A stretch of 64,000 nucleotides of DNA from an uncultured delta proteobacterium (GTDB lineage: Bacteria; Desulfobacterota; Desulfobacteria; Desulfobacterales; UBA2156): contig CAVTQK010000009.1 of the NCBI GenBank assembly GCA_963736855.1, forward strand, positions 512,001-576,000, in the 5' to 3' direction. The translations under genes and the position numbers were made by a program. The notes below the pieces were generated by a model, which did not search any database, was not told the origin of the DNA, and saw only the letters and a list, made by a program, of their open reading frames with translations. Numbering within the stretch: position 1 is the stretch's first letter; every line of letters starts with the position of its first letter. This document shows, in pieces, positions 52,501 to 64,000 of the stretch.

Positions 52501-52647
52501 GCCACCGGGAATTTTAAACGGAAACAGAAACGGAAACAAGGGATACGGTTTCCTGGGAAAGGGACAGGTTCATCGCCTAAAAGCGGATTCGTTTTAGCGG
52601 ATTAACCTGCCGCTAACATTAACAACAGCAAGGAGGGAGGAGGATTT

Positions 52648-55600
52648 ATGAACGTTTCACGCCGAGAGTTCATGCAGATTACCGGTGCCACGGCAGCGGG
52701 TCTTGCGGTGAGCGGCCTGGGGTTTGATCTTTCGCCGGTTCAATCCCACGCTCAGATGCTAAAGACCAAGTATGCCAAAGAGACCATCACGATCTGCCCC
52801 TACTGCGGGGTGGGATGCGGGGCCATCGTGCATACCGCCAAAAGTGGGGCCGGCCGTGTCATCAACATCGAAGGGGATCCGGACCATGTCATCAGCCGGG
52901 GATCCCTGTGCTCGAAGGGCTCTTCTCTGAAGCAGCTGGTGGAAAACGAAAACCGATTGCTGGAACCCATGTACCGGGCTCCGAATTCAAAGGAATGGAA
53001 ACCGGTGTCATGGGACTGGGCCATTGAAGAGATTGCCAAACGCGTCAAGGCCACACGGGACGCCACTTTTGAGGCTAAAAACGACAAGGGGCAGACGGTC
53101 AACCGCACCACAGCCATCGCCTCGGTGGGCAGCGCCGCTTTGGACAATGAAGAGTGCTGGATCTACCAGGCCCTGCTGCGAGCTCTCGGGCTGGTATATA
53201 TCGAACACCAGGCCCGTATCTGACACAGCGCCACGGTTGCGGCTCTGGCAGAGTCGTTCGGACGCGGCGCCATGACCAACCACTGGATTGATCTGAAAAA
53301 CGCGGACTTCATTCTCATCATGGGAAGCAACGCCGCGGAAAACCACCCCATCTCTTTCAGATGGATCACCGAGGCCCAGAAAAACGGCGCCACCCTCATC
53401 AATGTGGATCCACGTTTACCCGCACCTCCTCCAAGGCGGATATTTACGCTTCTTTGCGTTCCGGGACGGACATCGCCTTTTTGGGCGGGATGATCAAGTA
53501 CATCCTGGACAATAAACTGTATTTTGAAGAATATATGCTCGATTATACCAACGCTTCTTTTATTGTAAACGATGCTTTTGGATTTTCCGACGGCCTCTTT
53601 GCCGGTTATGACGATAAAAAGCGCAGTTACGACAAAAGCAAGTGGGCTTTTGCTATGGACGAAAAGGGTGTTCCCAAGCGTGACCCCAGCCTGAAAAATC
53701 CCCTATGTGTAATCAATCTGCTTAAAAAGCACTACGATCGCTATACGCTCAAGAAAGTATCAGAGGTCACCGGGACCCCGGAAGCCGATCTTTTGAAGGT
53801 TTACAAAGCTTACAGCGCCACCGGCAAAACCTGACAAGGCCGCCACTATCATGTACGCCATGGGATGGACCCAGCATACGGTGGGCGTCCAGAACATCCG
53901 CGCCATGTGCATCATTCAACTGCTGCTGGGCAACATGGGCATCGCGGGCGGCGGTGTGAATGCCCTGCGGGGTGAATCCAATGTGCAGGGCTCCACGGAT
54001 CAAGGCTTGTTGTTCCACATCCTGCCCGGCTATCTGCCCACGCCGGCGGCCTCCATCGACTCCCTGACGGTTTACAAAGAGAAAAACACGCCCAAGAGCA
54101 ACGATCCGCGTTCGGCCAACTGGTGGCAGAACCGGCCCAAGTACATCACCAGCCTGCTCAAGTCCTTTTTCGGAGACAAGGCTACGGCAGAAAACGATTT
54201 CGGCTACAACTGGCTGCCAAAGGTCGACGACGGAAAGCCCTATTCCTGGCTGGATATCTTCGATGCCATGTACAACGGGAAGATCAAGGGGTTTTTTGCC
54301 TGGGGCCAGAACCCGGCCTGCTCGGGCGCCAATTCCAACAAGACCCGCAAGGCCATGGCCAAGCTGGACTGGATGGTGAACGTCAATCTTTTTGACAATG
54401 AAACCGGCTCGTTCTGGAAGGGTCCGGGAATGGATCCATCGGCCATCAAGACCGAGGTATTCATGCTCCCGGCCTGCGTTTCCGTGGAAAAAGAAGGGAT
54501 CTATCAGCAACTCGGGCCGCTGGATGCAGTGGCGCTACGAGGGACCCAAACCCTTAGGCAACAGCCGCCCCGATGGCGACATGATCATGGAACTGGGTCT
54601 CAAGCTCAAGGAACTCTATGCCAAGGGCGGGGGGTTCCCGGATCCGATCCTCAACCTCAAGTGGGACTATTCAACCAATCATAAGTACGATCCCCACAAG
54701 GCGGCCAAGGAGATCAACGGCTACTGGCTCAAAGACAAAACCATCGGCGAGGTCACTTACAAGGCCGGCTCTCTCGTGGCGCCGGGATTTGCCCTGCTCC
54801 AGGCCGACGGCTCCACTTCCTGCGGCAACTGGATCTACTGCGGCAGCTATACGGACAAGGGGAACATGGCGGCCCGGCGGAGCCAGGAAGATGCACCCAA
54901 CAAGATCGGCCTGTATCCCGCCTTTGCCTGGTGCTGGCCGGTGAACCGGCGGATCATCTACAACCGAGCTTCCTGCAATCCAAAAGGACAGCCGTATAAT
55001 GAAAAGCGCTGGGTCGTCAAATGGGATGCTGAAGGAAAAAAATGGGTCGGCGATGTCCCGGATGGACCCTGGCCCCCGCTGCAAAACCCGGACGGCAGCC
55101 AGCGTGAGGACGGTCGTTATCCGTTTATCATGACAAAAGAAGGATTTGCTCAGATTTATGGCCCGGGCCTCAACGACGGGCCTTTCCCGGAACACTATGA
55201 GCCTCTGGAATGCCCGGTGGAGAAAAATGCATTCGGCAAACAGCTCATGAACCCCACGGCCCCGGTGTACGGCACCGATGCGGATGCGCATTTTACCTGC
55301 GACCCGCGCTATCCCTATGTGTGCACTACCTATCGGGTATCCGAGCACTGGCAGACCGGGCTGATGACCCGGCCCCAGCCCTGGCTGCTGGAACTTCAGC
55401 CCCAGATGTTTGTGGAGATCAGCGAGGAGCTGGCTAAACTGAAAGGATTTAAAAACGGTGAACGGATCAAGGTGTCTTCAGCCCGCGGATCGGTGGAGTG
55501 TACGACCATCGTGACCAAGCGCTTTAAACCCTTTAAAATCAGCGGCACGGTGGTCCATGAAGTGGGGATTCCATGGCATTTCGGCTGGCGATGGCCCGAC

Positions 55601-55705
55601 AGCGGCAAAGAGGAAAGTGCGAACCTGCTCACGCCGTCCACCGGTGATCCCAACACCCGGATCCCGGAAACCAAGGCCTTCATGGTCAACGTGGCCAAAA
55701 TCTAA
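52648..55705 (+). CDS. fdhA: Periplasmic Mo/W formate dehydrogenase alpha subunit with selenocysteine (UGA 53221-53223); about 3 extra frameshifts
   Basis: Tat SRREF, CPYCGVGC..C, EHQARI-UGA-HSATV, MGWTQH, LRGESNVQGSTD. Confidence 0.93.
53239..53257 (+). promoter_or_regulatory. Bacterial SECIS element of fdhA
   Basis: gcggctct-GGC-agagtcgt hairpin; first loop G lies 24 nt after the UGA. Confidence 0.85.
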
Positions 55706-57415: not shown

Positions 57416-57759
57416 CGATTTTACGGAAAACAGGCCAACCTTAAATCTTACCGGAAAATGGGACGTATCCCGATAATACCGCTAATTCTCGAAAAAATGC
57501 GCTGGTTTTTCCAAAGTGTTTCCATATTTATTTTTGTTGTTTTTTTTTTATTCATATGTCATGTGCTCAAAACCGCTCGTTGCTCCTTTGAGCATTAAAC
57601 GAGCGCTGTGCTCGAATTTCCAAGCGATGCGTGTAAACGCATGGAGGAGATGAAAGAGCCGCACGCAAAACTAAAAACGAGCCGATCTCTCTTTTTCTTT
57701 TCAGCCAAAGCCTATTGATCACAACAGCAGTGGGAAGAACCTACATGAAGGAGGTGTCA

Positions 57760-58703
57760 ATGGACAAGGAACAGAGAAAATTTTACGAAAGATTGGAAGG
57801 AAAAGGTGTCTCAAGAAGGGACTTCATGCGTTATTGCACCTTTTTAACCGCTACCATGGGGCTTTCCGCCGCCTATGTACCCAAGGTGGCGGAGGTGTTT
57901 GCGGCGCCCACGCAACGCCCCCCGGTGATCTGGCTTCATTTTGCCGAGTGCACCGGGTGCTCCGAGGCGGTTCTGCGTTCCACTTACCCGTACATCGACG
58001 ATCTGGTGCTGGAGGTCCTCTCTTAGAATACCATGAAACCGTCATGGCGGCAGCGGGACAGCAGGCCGAAGACCAGCTTCATGCCTCGGTCAAGAAGTAC
58101 GAAGGAAAATACATCTGTGTGGTGGAAGGGGCCATCGCCACCAAGTTTAACGGCGGTTATGGTAAGATTTCCGGACGCACCTTTCTGGAGATCGGAAAGG
58201 ACGTCTGCAGCAAAGCTGCCGCGGTGATCTGCATCGGCGCCTGTTCTTCTTTCGGCGGGATTCAGACCGCCAAACCGAATCCGGGCGGATTTAAAGGGGT
58301 CGGAGAAGCCCTGGGCATTAAAACCCTAAACATTCCCGGATGTCCTCCCAATCCGGTCAATTTCGTCGGAACCGTGGTCAATTTCCTTCTTTTAGGGAAA
58401 CTGCCGGCTTTAGACAAGTTAGGCCGGCCACTCTTTGCCTATGGGAAAACCATCCACGATCAATGTCCGAGAAGGTCCCATTTTGAAAACGAGGAATTCG
58501 TCACCGAGTTCGGTTCGCCGGAAGCGGCTATGGGATACTGCCTGTATAAGATGGGCTGTCGGGGACCCGAGACCTTCAATAATTGTCCCATCGCCAAGTT
58601 CAACGAAGGCACCAGCTTCCCCATCGAAGCCGGGCATCCTTGCATCGGGTGCAGCGAGCCCGATTTCTGGGACAAGATGACGCCGTTCTATAAAGAAATG
58701 TAG
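57760..58703 (+). CDS. [NiFe] hydrogenase small subunit, Tat-exported (one frameshift near 58022)
   Basis: SRRDFMRYC, ECTGCSE, IPGCPPNP, IHDQCPRR, CLYKMGCRGP, HPCIGCSEPDFWD. Confidence 0.93.
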
Positions 58704-58759: not shown

Positions 58760-60412
58760 ATGGGAAATAGAATCACCATTGATCCGATTACCAGAATAGA
58801 AGGCCACCTTCGCATTGAAGTAGAGGTGGCCGGAGGGAAAGTGGTCAACGCCTGGAGCAGCCCTCAGATGTTTCGGGGCATCGAACTGATTCTGCTGGGC
58901 CGGGATCCCCGGGATGCCCATCATTTTGTGCAGCGCTCCTGCGGGGTCTGAACGTTGACCCATGCTCTGTCCTCGGTGAGGGCAGTCGAAGACGCGGTTA
59001 AAGTCAATATTCCCGACAACGTCAGGATTATCCGAAATCTGCTTCATGGTGCCCAGTTCCAACACGACCATATTGTCCACTTTTATCATCTGCATGCCCT
59101 GGACTGGGTGGACATAGTCAGTGCCCTGAAAGCCGACCCTAAAGCCACCGCATCGCTTGCCGATACCGTCAGTAATGCCCCGGTGGGGGGTGCGGCCTAT
59201 TTCAAAACCGTTCAACAAAGATTGAAGACTTTTGTGGACAGCGGCCAGCTGGGGCCCTTCGCCAACGCCTACTGGGGGCATCCCGCATACAAGCTCCCTC
59301 CGGAGGCGAACCTCATGGCCGCAGCTCACTATGTGGAGGCCCTGCGGATCCAGGCAAGGGCTGCACGGATGCATGCCATTTTCGGCGCCAAGAATCCACA
59401 TCTTCAATCCCTGGTGGTGGGGGGTGTCACCTGTGTGGCGGACCTGACCCCGGATCGGATTGCCGAATTTCTCTACATCTGGAAGGAAACCCAAAGCTTC
59501 ATAGAAAATGTATACATCCCGGATCTCCTCGCGGTAGCATCCTTTTACAAAGACTGGGGCGCCATCGGCGGAACCCAAAACTTTATGGCTTGGGGTGATT
59601 TCCCGGAAACGGCCAAGGAGCCGGAGAGCCTGTACATGCCGCGGGGCGTCATTAAAAAGCGGGACCTGGCCGGTGTCGCCATGGCTAAACAAGAAGGGGT
59701 TACCGAGCATGTCAAGCGTTCCTGGTATACAGATGGAGATCCAAAGCATCCCTACAAAGGGGAGACCAAGCCGCTTCAGGAAAATCCGGCCTACAAACCG
59801 GATGATGGCAAATACTCCTGGATGAAGGCTCCCCGGTATGACAATGAAGCCTGCGAAGTGGGACCATTGGCCCGTGTTTTGGTAGCCTATGCCAAGGGGC
59901 ATGCCACTATTAAACCCCTGGTGGATCAGACCTGCCAGAAGCTGGGAATTCCCGTCACGGCCCTCTTCTCCACTTTAGGTCGGACCGCAGCTCGGGCGCT
60001 GGAAACCGTGGCTATCGGCAAGGCCATGGAAGGATGGATCATGAAGTTGGTGGAAAACGTGAAGGGCGGCAACACCAAGACCTACCAGGCCTGGGACTGG
60101 CCCAAGGAAGAAGCCATGGGCGTCGGGCTCAATGATGTTCCCCGGGGATCCCTCGGACACTGGGTTGTCATCGAAAAACAGAAAATTAAAAACTATCAGT
60201 ATGTGGTTCCCTCCACATGGAACTTGGGCCCACGATGCGGCAACAACAAAATGGGTCCCGTGGAAGAGGCGCTTATCGGCACACCAGTGGCCGATCCCAA
60301 GCAGCCCCTGGAGGTATTGAGAACCGTTCACTCTTTCGACCCGTGTATAGCCTGCGGCGTCCACGTTATCGACCCGGATTCCAATCAGGTATACAAAGTC
60401 AAAGCGTTATAA
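58760..60412 (+). CDS. Group-1b-like [NiFe] hydrogenase large subunit, 550 aa if the in-frame UGA at codon 64 (58949-58951) is read as Sec
   Basis: [48 protein letters not shown] plus cleavable tail; ORFs 58760 and 58955 share one frame. Confidence 0.9.
58967..58985 (+). promoter_or_regulatory. Putative SECIS element of the hydrogenase large subunit
   Basis: ctgtcctc-GGT-gagggcag, 8-bp stem with one G-U; first loop G lies 24 nt after the UGA. Confidence 0.78.
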
Positions 60413-60429: not shown

Positions 60430-60468
60430 CTCCGGCCTCCCTGATTTCCAGGGGGGCCGGAGCTTTTT
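60430..60468 (+). terminator. Rho-independent terminator after the hydrogenase large subunit
   Basis: ctccggcctccctg-atttc-caggggggccggag then cttttt. Confidence 0.8.
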
Positions 60469-60493
60469 AGGCTTTTTAACGATAGGCTTTGGT

Positions 60494-60591: not shown

Positions 60592-63500
60592 ATGGCCAGT
60601 CGATATTCTCCGAGTCGGATTTACCAACACAGCGTCGAATCGATCTTGTACCACCCTAAAGCCACCTTGTTAGTGGTGGCGCTTTTCACCCTGTTTTTTG
60701 CCTGGCAAATACCCAACCTGAAAATCCGCACCTCCATTTATGATCTGGTGGTGGAAGACATCCCAGAAAGTGTGACCTACAAGGCTTTTCGAAAACTTTT
60801 CGGATCCGACGAAATCATTCGGATTGTCATCAAGGCAAAAGATATCCTGGATCCGATAACGTTTGAAAAGTTGGGCGGAATCGCTAAGGACTTTTCGAAG
60901 ATCCCCGGGGTACGGCGGATCATCAGCCTCCCGGACATCAAGGCCGCGGTGGAGGCGGGGAGTCCGTGGGATCTCAAACGCTTTGCCGCCGTCCTTTCTC
61001 CTGTCGAGCTTTTTCAGAAAAACCTCATTTCGGCCGACCGCAGCGCCACAGCGATTACCCTGGTGCTTCAAATGGATGCGGACAAAGACGCCGTGATCCG
61101 GACGGTTGAGGAGCATATCGCCGGGGCGCCTAAAGATCTAACCCTGTACCAGATCGGGATGCCAGTGGTCTCAAACGCTTTAACCCGATATACCCAGAGG
61201 GATTTCTACCTGCTTCCCCCGCTTACCCTTGCCGTCATGACCGTAATCCTGTTTTTCTTGTATCCCACCTTCCTGCTCATGCTCATTCCCATTTCTTGTG
61301 TTTTGATCGCGATGGTCCTCACGTTCGGCCTCATGGCCATGATCCAGATCCCCCTATCCATGCTTACCATGATTGTTCCGGTTTTTCTCATCGCCGTCGG
61401 AATGGCGTATTGCGTTTATATCACCTCGGAATTCACCGAGGCGTTAAACAGGCTGCCTTCGCCGGCTGCTGCGGCCCTGGCCACTTTTTCGAGCATGACG
61501 CTTCCCACGATGGTGGCGGTGCTCACCACCGTGGTGGGGATAGCTTCCCTTTTAATCAACCGGATTCAGGCCATTCGGGAGTTTGCCGTATTCGGCTCAG
61601 TCGGGATCATCATCCTCATGATTCTGGCCTTAACGTTTTTGCCCGCAGCCTTTGCCCTGGTGCCGTCCCGAAACGGGAGGCGCCTTGAGAGCACCCGGGC
61701 GGCAAGGGCGGCCCATTGGTTCACGAACAAGATCGCTCATATCAACATCCACCGACAGAGTATTTCTCTTCCTATACTCGGCGGAGTGGCGCTTTTTTGT
61801 ATCATCGGGATCTTCAGGATCCAGGTGGAGACAAACCCGGTGGAGTTTTTCAAAAAGGATGCCCCGGTAAGCCGCCACTTTCACGACATCGCCCGTCACC
61901 TGTCCGGGAGCTTTCCAGTCCATGTAGCTGTTTCTGCCAGGGAAGAAGATGCATTTGAAGACCCGAAGATGCTCAAGGAGATAGAGCGCCTTCAAAAAGA
62001 TCTGGAAAAACTTCAGGGTGTGGATAAAAGCCTCTCTCTGATCGACTACATGAAGCTGGTCAATTACGCCCTCAACCAATTCGATCCCAAATACTACACC
62101 CTTCCGGAACAGGACTTCGAAGTCAGGATGATTTTGAACAATTACAAGGTCATGCTCGGGGAGGACATGCTGTACGGATTCGTGAACAGGGGTTTTTCAA
62201 AAGTCAACCTCATGTTGTTGACGCATCTTTCCAGTTCCAAAGAGTTTCTTGAGATCAAAAAACAGATCTTAGAACACGTGGTGCAACAGTGCCCCAAAGC
62301 GATTTCCGCCGAGGTGACCGGTATCGGCGTGGTCATTTCGGCCAGCAGCGACATCCTGACTACCGGGCAGGTCAAGAGCCTTTCCCTCAGCATGGGCTTG
62401 ATCTTTTCAATGATGTTCATACTGTTTTTATCCTTCAAGGTGGGGTTGATCGCCATTGTCCCGAACCTGTTTCCCATCGTGGTCAACTTCGGGGTCATGG
62501 GATGGCTGGGGATAAAGCTCTCCGCAGCCACGAGTCTGATTGCCAGCATCGCCATCGGCCTGGCGGTGGACGATACCATTCATTACCTGGTCTGTTTCAA
62601 CCGGGAATTCAAGAAATGCCTGAACGATGAAACGGCGCTTCGGGAGACGCTAAAACGGGTGGGGCTTTCCATGGTTTTCACCTCCATCATCATCAGTTCA
62701 GGGTTCTCGGTCCTGATGGCGTCCAATTTCGGGCCGACATCCCTTTTCGGATTCCTTATGGTCGTCACCATGATTTCGGCGCTGGCAGGGGATCTCCTCA
62801 TTCTTCCTTCCCTGATGCTCCACGTGGAACTGGTGACTTTGTGGGATTTGATCCGATTGAAGCTGGGAAAAGATCCCCAGGAAGGGATTCCGTTGTTCAA
62901 GGGTCTTTCCCGATCCCGGATCCATCATATCATTATGGCCGGATCGCTGAAGGCTTTTAACCCGGGAGATGTAATCTGCCGTAAAGGGGATCAAAGCGAT
63001 TTTATGTACACCGTCATTTCGGGGGGGCTGGACGTGATCGAGCCCATGGCGGAGGATCGAAACGGAAGCTACGGCGGAGACCGGGTCATCAGCCATATCC
63101 GCGTAGGAGATGTGGTGGGGGAGATGGGACTGTTCAGAGGAATGCCGCGTTCGGCCACCGTGGTCGCCACTTCGGAAGGAGAATTGCTCCAGATCAACTG
63201 GAAGATGATTCGACGCCTTCAGTTTCTATATCCAGGGACTGCCAATAAATTTTTCCATAATCTCGTGACGATTCTTTGCGACCGGCTGGAACACATCACC
63301 CAGTGCTATGTCGCCGAATGCTTCATCGATGAAGAAAGCGGGGTATTCAATTCCAGAGGGTTTTTTGAGGCCCTTCAGAGACAGCTTCATCTGGCTTTAA
63401 GACATGGGATGTCCTTATCTCTGTGTTTCCTGAAAGTCCGCTTCGACCCGGATGGTTTCGGAAAGGATTCCCAGGTCAAAGATCGGATCCTGCAGCTTGC

Positions 63501-63792
63501 AGGCCGGATCATGTCTCAAATCATTAGAAGAAGCGATGTGGCGGGAAGGATAGATGGACAGACATTCGGCCTGATTCTCATCGGATCTTCGGCAAAGAAT
63601 TCCTTGGAAACCTGCCGGCGGATCCAGGCACGTTTTGAAACCGAAGCCCGGGAGAAAGAAGACTTTCCGGCGGGATTGATCTTCGGAATCTCCGATGGTA
63701 AATTAGACTCCAACACACAGGCTTCGAATCTGATCCAGGAGGCCAAGGAAGCATTGAAAAAGGCCGGCGCCCGGCAGGGTTTTGTGCAATAA
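60592..63792 (+). CDS. MMPL/RND-family transporter fused to cNMP-binding and degenerate GGDEF-like domains
   Basis: Two MMPL repeats (IAIGLAVDDTIH), VVGEMGLF..PRSATV, C-terminal RRSDVAGRIDGQTF. Confidence 0.85.
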   Translation: MASRYSPSRIYQHSVESILYHPKATLLVVALFTLFFAWQIPNLKIRTSIYDLVVEDIPESVTYKAFRKLFGSDEIIRIVIKAKDILDPITFEKLGGIAKDFSKIPGVRRIISLPDIKAAVEAGSPWDLKRFAAVLSPVELFQKNLISADRSATAITLVLQMDADKDAVIRTVEEHIAGAPKDLTLYQIGMPVVSNALTRYTQRDFYLLPPLTLAVMTVILFFLYPTFLLMLIPISCVLIAMVLTFGLMAMIQIPLSMLTMIVPVFLIAVGMAYCVYITSEFTEALNRLPSPAAAALATFSSMTLPTMVAVLTTVVGIASLLINRIQAIREFAVFGSVGIIILMILALTFLPAAFALVPSRNGRRLESTRAARAAHWFTNKIAHINIHRQSISLPILGGVALFCIIGIFRIQVETNPVEFFKKDAPVSRHFHDIARHLSGSFPVHVAVSAREEDAFEDPKMLKEIERLQKDLEKLQGVDKSLSLIDYMKLVNYALNQFDPKYYTLPEQDFEVRMILNNYKVMLGEDMLYGFVNRGFSKVNLMLLTHLSSSKEFLEIKKQILEHVVQQCPKAISAEVTGIGVVISASSDILTTGQVKSLSLSMGLIFSMMFILFLSFKVGLIAIVPNLFPIVVNFGVMGWLGIKLSAATSLIASIAIGLAVDDTIHYLVCFNREFKKCLNDETALRETLKRVGLSMVFTSIIISSGFSVLMASNFGPTSLFGFLMVVTMISALAGDLLILPSLMLHVELVTLWDLIRLKLGKDPQEGIPLFKGLSRSRIHHIIMAGSLKAFNPGDVICRKGDQSDFMYTVISGGLDVIEPMAEDRNGSYGGDRVISHIRVGDVVGEMGLFRGMPRSATVVATSEGELLQINWKMIRRLQFLYPGTANKFFHNLVTILCDRLEHITQCYVAECFIDEESGVFNSRGFFEALQRQLHLALRHGMSLSLCFLKVRFDPDGFGKDSQVKDRILQLAGRIMSQIIRRSDVAGRIDGQTFGLILIGSSAKNSLETCRRIQARFETEAREKEDFPAGLIFGISDGKLDSNTQASNLIQEAKEALKKAGARQGFVQ

Positions 63793-63903: not shown

Positions 63904-64000
63904 ATGACGAAGCCCCGCATCATGATCCTCGGGATCGGAAACCTTCTCTTTTCAGATGAAGGGTTCGGTGTCCGCGTCCTTCAACGTCTGATGGAAGGTT
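63904..64000 (+). CDS. Hydrogenase maturation protease (HyaD/HybD family), 5' end only
   Basis: MTKPRIMILGIGNLLFSDEGFGVRVL. Confidence 0.9.
   Translation, partial: MTKPRIMILGIGNLLFSDEGFGVRVLQRLMEG

Follow-up and report, generated by a model that had tools for sequence, protein, structure and literature searches.

Work on selenium in hydrogenases has so far concerned selenocysteine (Sec) at one terminal Ni ligand, and, for a bridging selenolate, the sole enzyme studied is an E. coli variant made by engineering, which performs poorly. The canonical [NiFeSe] hydrogenases (Hys of D. vulgaris Hildenborough and of Desulfomicrobium baculatum; 2wpn, 1cc1) are periplasmic enzymes of sulfate reducers, in which Sec opens the C-terminal motif (DPUxxC) and serves as a terminal Ni ligand. 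The hydrogenase described here, encoded in a 64,000-nt stretch of DNA from an uncultured delta proteobacterium (hereafter the window), resembles them in having a single predicted Sec ligand, a predicted periplasmic location and sulfate-reducing relatives, but has Cys at the start of its C-terminal motif. In its motifs, its length, its C-terminal extension and the Tat signal on its small subunit, it resembles instead the standard periplasmic [NiFe] hydrogenases (1h2a, 1frv/2frv, 1frf), which have Cys where the window enzyme would have Sec, at residue 64. We take “Group 1b” to be the label of these periplasmic enzymes of D. vulgaris MF, D. gigas and D. fructosovorans, and use it in that sense.

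Sec in the N-terminal ligand motif has been noted before. According to the accessible portion of a 2026 study (PMC13582414), an N-terminal CXXU motif, its Sec predicted to bridge Ni and Fe, had been described by Baltazar et al. 2011 in two sequences of Group 1 and one of Group 3; these two Group 1 sequences compare with 70 of 90 distinct orthologues carrying a common SECIS here. As far as that portion goes, the study itself deals with Group 4 [NiFeSe] hydrogenases bearing N-terminal CXXU, UXXC or UXXU, the last called previously unrecognized, which share with our gene the N-terminal-motif Sec, a single downstream SECIS, a G in the apical loop and a mosaic of Sec and Cys forms, but are membrane-bound and energy-converting, Groups 1–3 having been excluded. 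Evans et al. 2021 (PMC8020662), in the sections accessible to us, mention “purported examples” of bridging Sec and describe the C79U variant of E. coli Hyd-1, which retained 13% of the native H2-oxidation activity with a lower KM for H2, had an activation enthalpy ~10 kJ/mol higher and was nearly inactive at 10% O2. Judging by the motif numbering in those sections, C79U exchanges the second N-terminal-motif Cys for Sec, at the position that corresponds to residue 64 here, but it is an artificial variant of an O2-tolerant membrane-bound scaffold, in contrast to the natural window enzyme. The first-pass annotation of the locus had proposed a new class; this part of its reading does not stand, given the Group 1 CXXU sequences attributed to Baltazar et al. 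in the accessible text of PMC13582414 and the engineered C79U of PMC8020662. Zhang and Gladyshev 2007 (PMC1976440) mention, for Olavius symbionts, “a new Sec in FrhA” that results in CxxU, a case that we did not count as the same finding, the accessible text giving neither the motif identity nor the hydrogenase group. Open-access papers and preprints yielded no biochemical work on any natural Group 1 hydrogenase with N-terminal Sec and no experimental demonstration of selenium incorporation for any member of the clade, and the literature on worm-symbiont metaproteomics yielded no evidence on this protein.

The hydrogenase genes of the window comprise the following features.

57760..58703, + strand: small (Fe-S) subunit gene with twin-arginine signal SRRDFM, directly upstream of the large-subunit gene; 1-nt deletion in the assembly

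58760..60412, + strand: large (catalytic) subunit gene of a [NiFe] hydrogenase; 550 codons, ATG start, TAA stop, one in-frame TGA

58940..58951, + strand: N-terminal Ni-binding motif C61-G-V-U64; TGC at 58940-58942, TGA (predicted Sec64) at 58949-58951

60338..60364, + strand: C-terminal Ni-binding motif DPCIACGVH, residues 527-535; both ligands Cys

60365..60412, + strand: C-terminal extension of 15 residues past His535, and stop codon; by alignment, the counterpart of the extension in the 1h2a_L precursor

60430..60470, + strand: inverted repeat of high GC content, CTCCGGCC...GGCCGGAG, with a run of T behind it, read directly off the sequence

As the first-pass annotation had stated, there is one in-frame TGA, at 58949-58951, and it falls on the second Cys of the N-terminal RxCGxC motif; sequence and translation agree on this, on a frame that runs past the TGA (QRSCGV-U-TLTH) without indel to DPCIACGVH and TAA, and on a C-terminal motif that is all Cys. 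Among the matches listed for public contigs (Logan) aligned on the stretch, none differs at 58949-58951, which lends weak support to the TGA, the matches listed being part of the whole. None of the public sequencing runs contained half of the sampled words of the stretch. RNA-library contigs of one run (X6) span 58897-58989 with 3–5 differences per 60 nt; these derive from relatives and do not show expression of the window gene itself. The C-terminal extension is presumably the substrate of a maturation endopeptidase, which would cleave it off, and the inverted repeat probably serves the hydrogenase genes as an intrinsic terminator. A maturation protease gene (G000:C9:575922-576359, window position 63922 onward; TIGR00072, 138 bits) lies 3.5 kb downstream of the hydrogenase, past a large RND/cNMP-binding/GGDEF fusion gene, and the other neighbors are moaA, fdhA (with a Sec codon), fdhB and an fdhE-like gene.

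We then compared the large subunit with known hydrogenases. It matches PF00374 with 727.9 bits over positions 1-508, and a profile search found no other PF00374 gene in the source genome (3.9 Mb, 25 contigs, completeness rated at 100%). Its best PDB matches are the large subunits of D. vulgaris Miyazaki F (1h2a_L, 702 bits), D. gigas and D. fructosovorans, with scores ranging from 702 to 682 bits. Against 1h2a_L, the large subunit aligns without a gap from residue 4 to past residue 100, and residues 61, 64, 529 and 532 align with Cys81, Cys84, Cys546 and Cys549, respectively, in line with the earlier placement of Sec at the second N-terminal ligand. We take Cys84 and Cys549 of the D. vulgaris Miyazaki enzyme to be the residues that bridge Ni and Fe. 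Canonical [NiFeSe] enzymes, in contrast, reach only ~320 bits, over residues 175-546, and both NiFeSe models were missed (NF045518, 407.5 against a cut-off of 780; NF033181, 565.5 against 600); the NCBIfam hydrogenase large-subunit models gave 521-580 bits, under their equivalog cut-offs. Scores of ~700 bits to the standard periplasmic [NiFe] enzymes, as against ~320 bits to the canonical [NiFeSe] ones, argue that Sec64 is independent of the Sec of Group 1a, and thus favor the group-1b-type periplasmic enzyme with independently gained Sec that had been put forward for this gene. The small subunit, with about 290 bits to standard periplasmic enzymes (291 bits to that of D. fructosovorans), keeps the Pro ahead of HPC(I/L)GC (sfPieaghpCigC aligned to nwPvqaghpClgC of D. 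fructosovorans). We assume that this Pro marks a [3Fe-4S] medial cluster, and that Cys in its place marks the [4Fe-4S] cluster of canonical [NiFeSe] enzymes.

The window gene very probably encodes a Group 1b-like, Tat-exported periplasmic uptake [NiFe] hydrogenase, in which the UGA of codon 64 is read as Sec at the N-terminal bridging ligand. In this model, SelB and Sec-tRNA(Sec) would read the UGA as selenocysteine, a SECIS hairpin located 15 nt downstream, inside the coding sequence, would guide the insertion, and Sec64 would replace the second Cys of RxCGxC, which forms a Ni-Fe bridge in solved homologues. Placing Sec64 at this position implies an active site with one bridging selenolate and three cysteine ligands. 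Insertion of Sec at this codon, its bridging of the two metals and an influence that it may have on activity or on the response to O2 are what we infer. The poor performance of Hyd-1 C79U means that an advantage of bridging Se is not obvious, and we counted this against the model.

The candidate recoding signal can be compared with that of the fdhA gene in the same window.

58967..58985, + strand: predicted bacterial SECIS hairpin with 8-bp stem and GGT loop, within codons 70-76, 15 nt past the TGA

53221..53257, + strand: fdhA Sec codon and SECIS with GGC loop; TIGR01553 positions 194/196 flank the TGA

The hydrogenase hairpin consists of CTGTCCTC (58967-58974), the loop GGT (58975-58977) and GAGGGCAG (58978-58985), and the first G of its loop stands 24 bases past the TGA. 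In fdhA, the Sec codon occupies 53221-53223, and, counting the U of UGA as 1, the stem lies at 19-26 and the GGC loop at 27-29, a register identical to that of the hydrogenase hairpin. Folding of both elements agrees with the loop G at +24 and the fdhA-like register noted in the first-pass annotation. By single-sequence folding energy, the hydrogenase hairpin was indistinguishable from chance in comparison with shuffled sequences (z = -1.89 with 71 nt folded, -0.21 with 47 nt); the case for it therefore rests on the comparison among orthologues. When the entire window was compared with Rfam under gathering thresholds, two tRNA-Ser genes were the only hits, and there was no match to the SECIS family. 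Separately, a helix around the UGA (GGGUC/GACCC) was considered and dropped, as it is not kept in relatives.

For this comparison, a first set of 60 related genomes provided 29 loci that hold the N-terminal part of an orthologue at an identity of at least 73%, with TGA at codon 64 in 19 loci and TGC or TGT in 10. Species-representative genomes contributed a further 80 loci, every one titled as Desulfobacterales/Desulfobacterota or “delta proteobacterium” and nearly all from MAGs; among the genomes are the Olavius symbionts Delta 1, 3 and 4, Eth-SRB1, Candidatus Desulfaltia, and Desulfosarcina and Desulfonema genomes. Over the 108 loci that cover the region, counted without deduplication, codon 64 is TGA in 86, TGC in 17 and TGT in 5. 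Removing from 110 loci 3 that were N-terminally cut, 6 that were short or C-terminally cut (one of which carried a second TGA, at codon 397) and 11 that were identical left 90 distinct full-length proteins, made up of 66 CXXU, 4 UXXU and 20 CXXC forms, that is, 70 with TGA and 20 with TGC or TGT. Thus, the possibility that no homologue has UGA at this position, which would have spoken against recoding, is not borne out. All 90 proteins have Cys in the C-terminal motif and are otherwise uninterrupted; DPCxxCxxH is present in 101 of 101 loci that reach this motif (107 loci read), and none has U there. The residues past the TGA (T-x-T-H...) are conserved in frame among relatives, indicating that the downstream frame is translated.

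We analyzed the hairpin region in the 70 Sec-type and the 20 Cys-type genes. Five Sec-type genes form 7 of the 8 stem pairs and the others form all 8; the loop is GGT in 67 and GGC in 3. The peptide encoded by the region (A/Y-L-S-S-V-R-A-V) is nearly unchanged in the Cys-type genes despite their lack of a full stem. Synonymous-codon entropy in the Sec-type genes drops to 0.00 at codons 71-74 and 77 and to 0.19 at codons 63 and 75, whereas in the Cys-type genes codons 63 and 71-75 have values of 1.5-2.25 and codon 77 one of 0.31, the gene-wide means being 1.32 and 1.26, respectively. Among 492 eight-codon windows, the four with the lowest entropy in the Sec-type genes start at codons 68-71, and the minima of the Cys-type genes lie elsewhere. 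In one gene (L060), both sides of pair 4 are changed (T.G to G.T), so that pairing is kept at the cost of two amino-acid changes. Equal conservation of the hairpin in Cys-encoding orthologues had been named beforehand as evidence against its role, and is not what we found: 65 of the 70 Sec-type genes have the full stem and none of the 20 Cys-type genes does, and the entropy drop is seen in the Sec-type only. As far as sequence comparison can tell, these results show that the hydrogenase hairpin acts as a SECIS, selected only where the UGA is present, and, judged by the same conservation, the large-subunit gene is a genuine selenoprotein gene.

The assembly shows a frame change in the small-subunit gene, which raises the question of whether the operon is functional in this strain.

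58021..58026, + strand: small-subunit frameshift site, TCT-TAG as against TCT-CTx-GAA in relatives; one base missing after 58023

The frame change at 58023/58024 occurs in the window only, the gene being in one unbroken frame in 27 of 27 relatives in which both halves were matched, and fdhA matches TIGR01553 in four successive frames. Together, the frameshifted small subunit and the dispersed fdhA frames could mean that the operon is decaying, such that the strain would have an intact Sec-type large subunit beside a real small-subunit deletion and three fdhA frameshifts, and no enzyme. We consider this unlikely. Contigs from two public runs, X1 and X2, have one additional C following 58023, which restores the frame; the X2 contig, of a depth of only ~3 and from the same strain or another, shows no other difference from the window over 57744-58173 (430 bases), and the X1 contig is ~97.5% like the window. 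Moreover, four indels within ~4 kb beside an untouched 1.65-kb large-subunit gene fit an indel-prone assembly better than decay, and loss of the operon would affect the only PF00374 gene of the genome. Thus, the small-subunit frameshift is probably an assembly error, and the assembly is probably indel-prone.

Reading of codon 64 as Sec also depends on the decoding machinery. The genome contains selA (617 bits), selB (381 bits), selD (374 bits) and one tRNA-SeC gene with anticodon tca (ARAGORN), which is the only selC-like gene above the Rfam threshold; the selenocysteine machinery is thus complete. The selD gene itself has one TGA, with a hairpin of GGA loop and of spacing similar to those of fdhA and the hydrogenase. 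An alternative is that the UGA is recoded via the SECIS as Cys by a tRNA(ReC)-like selC product, or read through by near-cognate Trp or Cys tRNAs, yielding an all-sulfur enzyme. Such tRNA(ReC)-like tRNAs, which read UGA as Cys with a SECIS, are described in the accessible text of PMC13582414 as enriched in genomes with UXXU hydrogenases. We regard this alternative as very unlikely here, given the single selC-like gene, the presence of selA and selD, and the other Sec codons maintained in fdhA and selD; of ten lower-scoring selC hits, the 4 that were checked are ordinary Trp, Leu and Ser tRNAs.

That the TGA is instead a plain stop, through sequencing error, pseudogene formation or gene splitting, leaving a fragment of 63 residues and perhaps a second, C-terminal protein started downstream, is scarcely credible, even though gene callers yield proteins of 456-478 aa that start past the TGA at a GTG inside the hairpin (3 of the best 120 database hits), since 70 of the 90 distinct orthologues, drawn from independent assemblies, have the same TGA, residues 65-72 with the conserved motif His would be lost and yet are conserved in frame, the fragment would end in RSCGV without a metal ligand, and the hairpin is selected in TGA forms only. 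These truncated entries agree with the expectation, already voiced in the first-pass annotation, that pipelines mishandle such genes. The cutting of genes at the UGA leads protein databases to under-represent N-terminal-Sec hydrogenases. Among the best 120 proteins, 117 are CxxC and full-length Cys forms rank first, a ranking that carries no information on the share of Sec forms.

Under the preferred reading of codon 64 as Sec, we examined how the Sec and Cys forms are distributed on a tree of the large subunits. At least 6 switches between Sec and Cys are seen, which indicates that Sec is dispensable and was counted against our explanation. Sec-type genes have essentially one hairpin sequence, and Cys-type genes have many synonymous alternatives in that region. 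A single common hairpin together with varied Cys-type codons suggests that the Sec form probably arose a single time, with several later reversions to Cys. In addition, R-T-U-G-V-U is found in five loci of the clade (L061, L063-L066) and in L131, from a phylum-wide sample of 401 genomes; the four distinct UXXU rows form one tree group, with a support of 91. The same sample contains a second, distant clade, of ~52-54% identity and closest to the Allochromatium vinosum enzyme 3myr, with CXXU in two genomes and UXXU in two, and a hairpin of 6 bp with a 5-nt loop which lies in the same place and differs in sequence and register. In the open-access literature, “UXXU” together with “hydrogenase” retrieved only the Group 4 study PMC13582414 and two selenoprotein reviews.

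The N-terminal-Sec variant of Group 1, although already noted in silico, is therefore far commoner than the visible literature suggests; what is new is the scale of the Sec form, its several reversions to Cys, and UXXU in two Group 1 clades. More broadly, it is likely that N-terminal Sec predominates over Cys in the standard periplasmic uptake hydrogenase of Desulfobacterales and neighboring Desulfobacterota, having been inherited with one SECIS and lost to Cys at least 6 times, and that unreported Group 1 R-x-U-G-V-U enzymes, with one terminal and one bridging Se, exist in two divergent clades, one Group 1b-like and the other like the Isp-type enzyme of Allochromatium. If so, the predominant Sec forms and the double-Sec forms would provide natural material for testing why some Ni ligands can be Se and others cannot. 

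A predicted natural enzyme with Sec at the bridging position, its SECIS under clear purifying selection, is thus widespread in sulfate-reducing Desulfobacterota; its carriers include symbionts of gutless worms and MAGs of alkane degraders, and in the window genome it is the sole hydrogenase of its family. These genes name concrete natural targets for spectroscopy and electrochemistry, and matched Sec/Cys pairs within one genus are available for comparison. The nearest neighbor of the window gene on the tree is such a same-genus Cys form (L021), whose DNA identity to the window, about 0.85-0.9, falls to 0.58-0.70 over codons 45-95. Two same-genus Sec-type genes peak in likeness to the window over these very codons, at 0.92-0.95, a pattern which suggests that the Cys allele of L021 may have arisen via an imported patch.

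Two in-frame TGAs, rather than the single TGA of the gene in the window, are found in six loci: L061, L063, L064, L065 and L066 of its clade (orthologue codons 61 and 64), and L131, from a phylum-wide sample. All six carry the motif R-T-U-G-V-U, followed downstream by the same hairpin as in the single-TGA orthologues, and the predicted N-terminal ligands, as read from these genes, are Sec at both positions (UXXU). The four full-length UXXU loci form a single group on the tree. Among the papers found, descriptions of UXXU are confined to Group 4 enzymes.

An N-terminal Sec is also present in a second Group 1 clade, represented by four loci from genomes G214, G134, G289 and G371, with an identity of about 52–54% and the Allochromatium vinosum hydrogenase (3myr) as nearest enzyme. 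Their N-terminal motifs are:
L127 and L128: RIUGVU
L129 and L130: RICGVU
The hairpin of this clade (cagctc-cgtga-gagctg) differs in sequence from that of the window gene's clade, yet occupies the same codons.

Within the genus of the window's genome, a Cys-type allele (L021 / L047) shares 84% identity with the window's gene as a whole; over codons 45–95, around the ligand motif and the former SECIS, the figure falls to 58–70%. The stretch looks like a replaced patch, not simple drift.

In one relative (L132, G285), a second TGA at orthologue codon 173 takes the place of the conserved Trp of NAYWGHPAY. Sec is unlikely here; an error or a recent mutation is the probable cause. The selD gene of the window's own genome (L133, G000:C15:107300-108400) is itself a selenoprotein gene, with the motif GAG-U-ASK; about 14 nt 3′ of its UGA lies a hairpin with a 6-bp stem and a GGA loop.

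Frame changes affect two neighboring genes. The small-subunit gene lacks one base at window 58021-58026 compared with all relatives; in public contigs from two runs, an additional C after 58023 restores the frame. In the formate dehydrogenase gene, the match to the TIGR01553 profile is spread over four successive frames, with changes near 53415, 53815 and 54490; these three apparent frameshifts are consistent with an indel-prone assembly. The coordinates of this gene and of a fusion gene, which separates the hydrogenase genes from the maturation protease gene, are:
52606-55705: fdhA, Sec codon at 53221-53223
60592-63792: 1066-residue fusion protein with RND/HAE3-type transporter, cyclic-nucleotide-binding and GGDEF diguanylate cyclase domains
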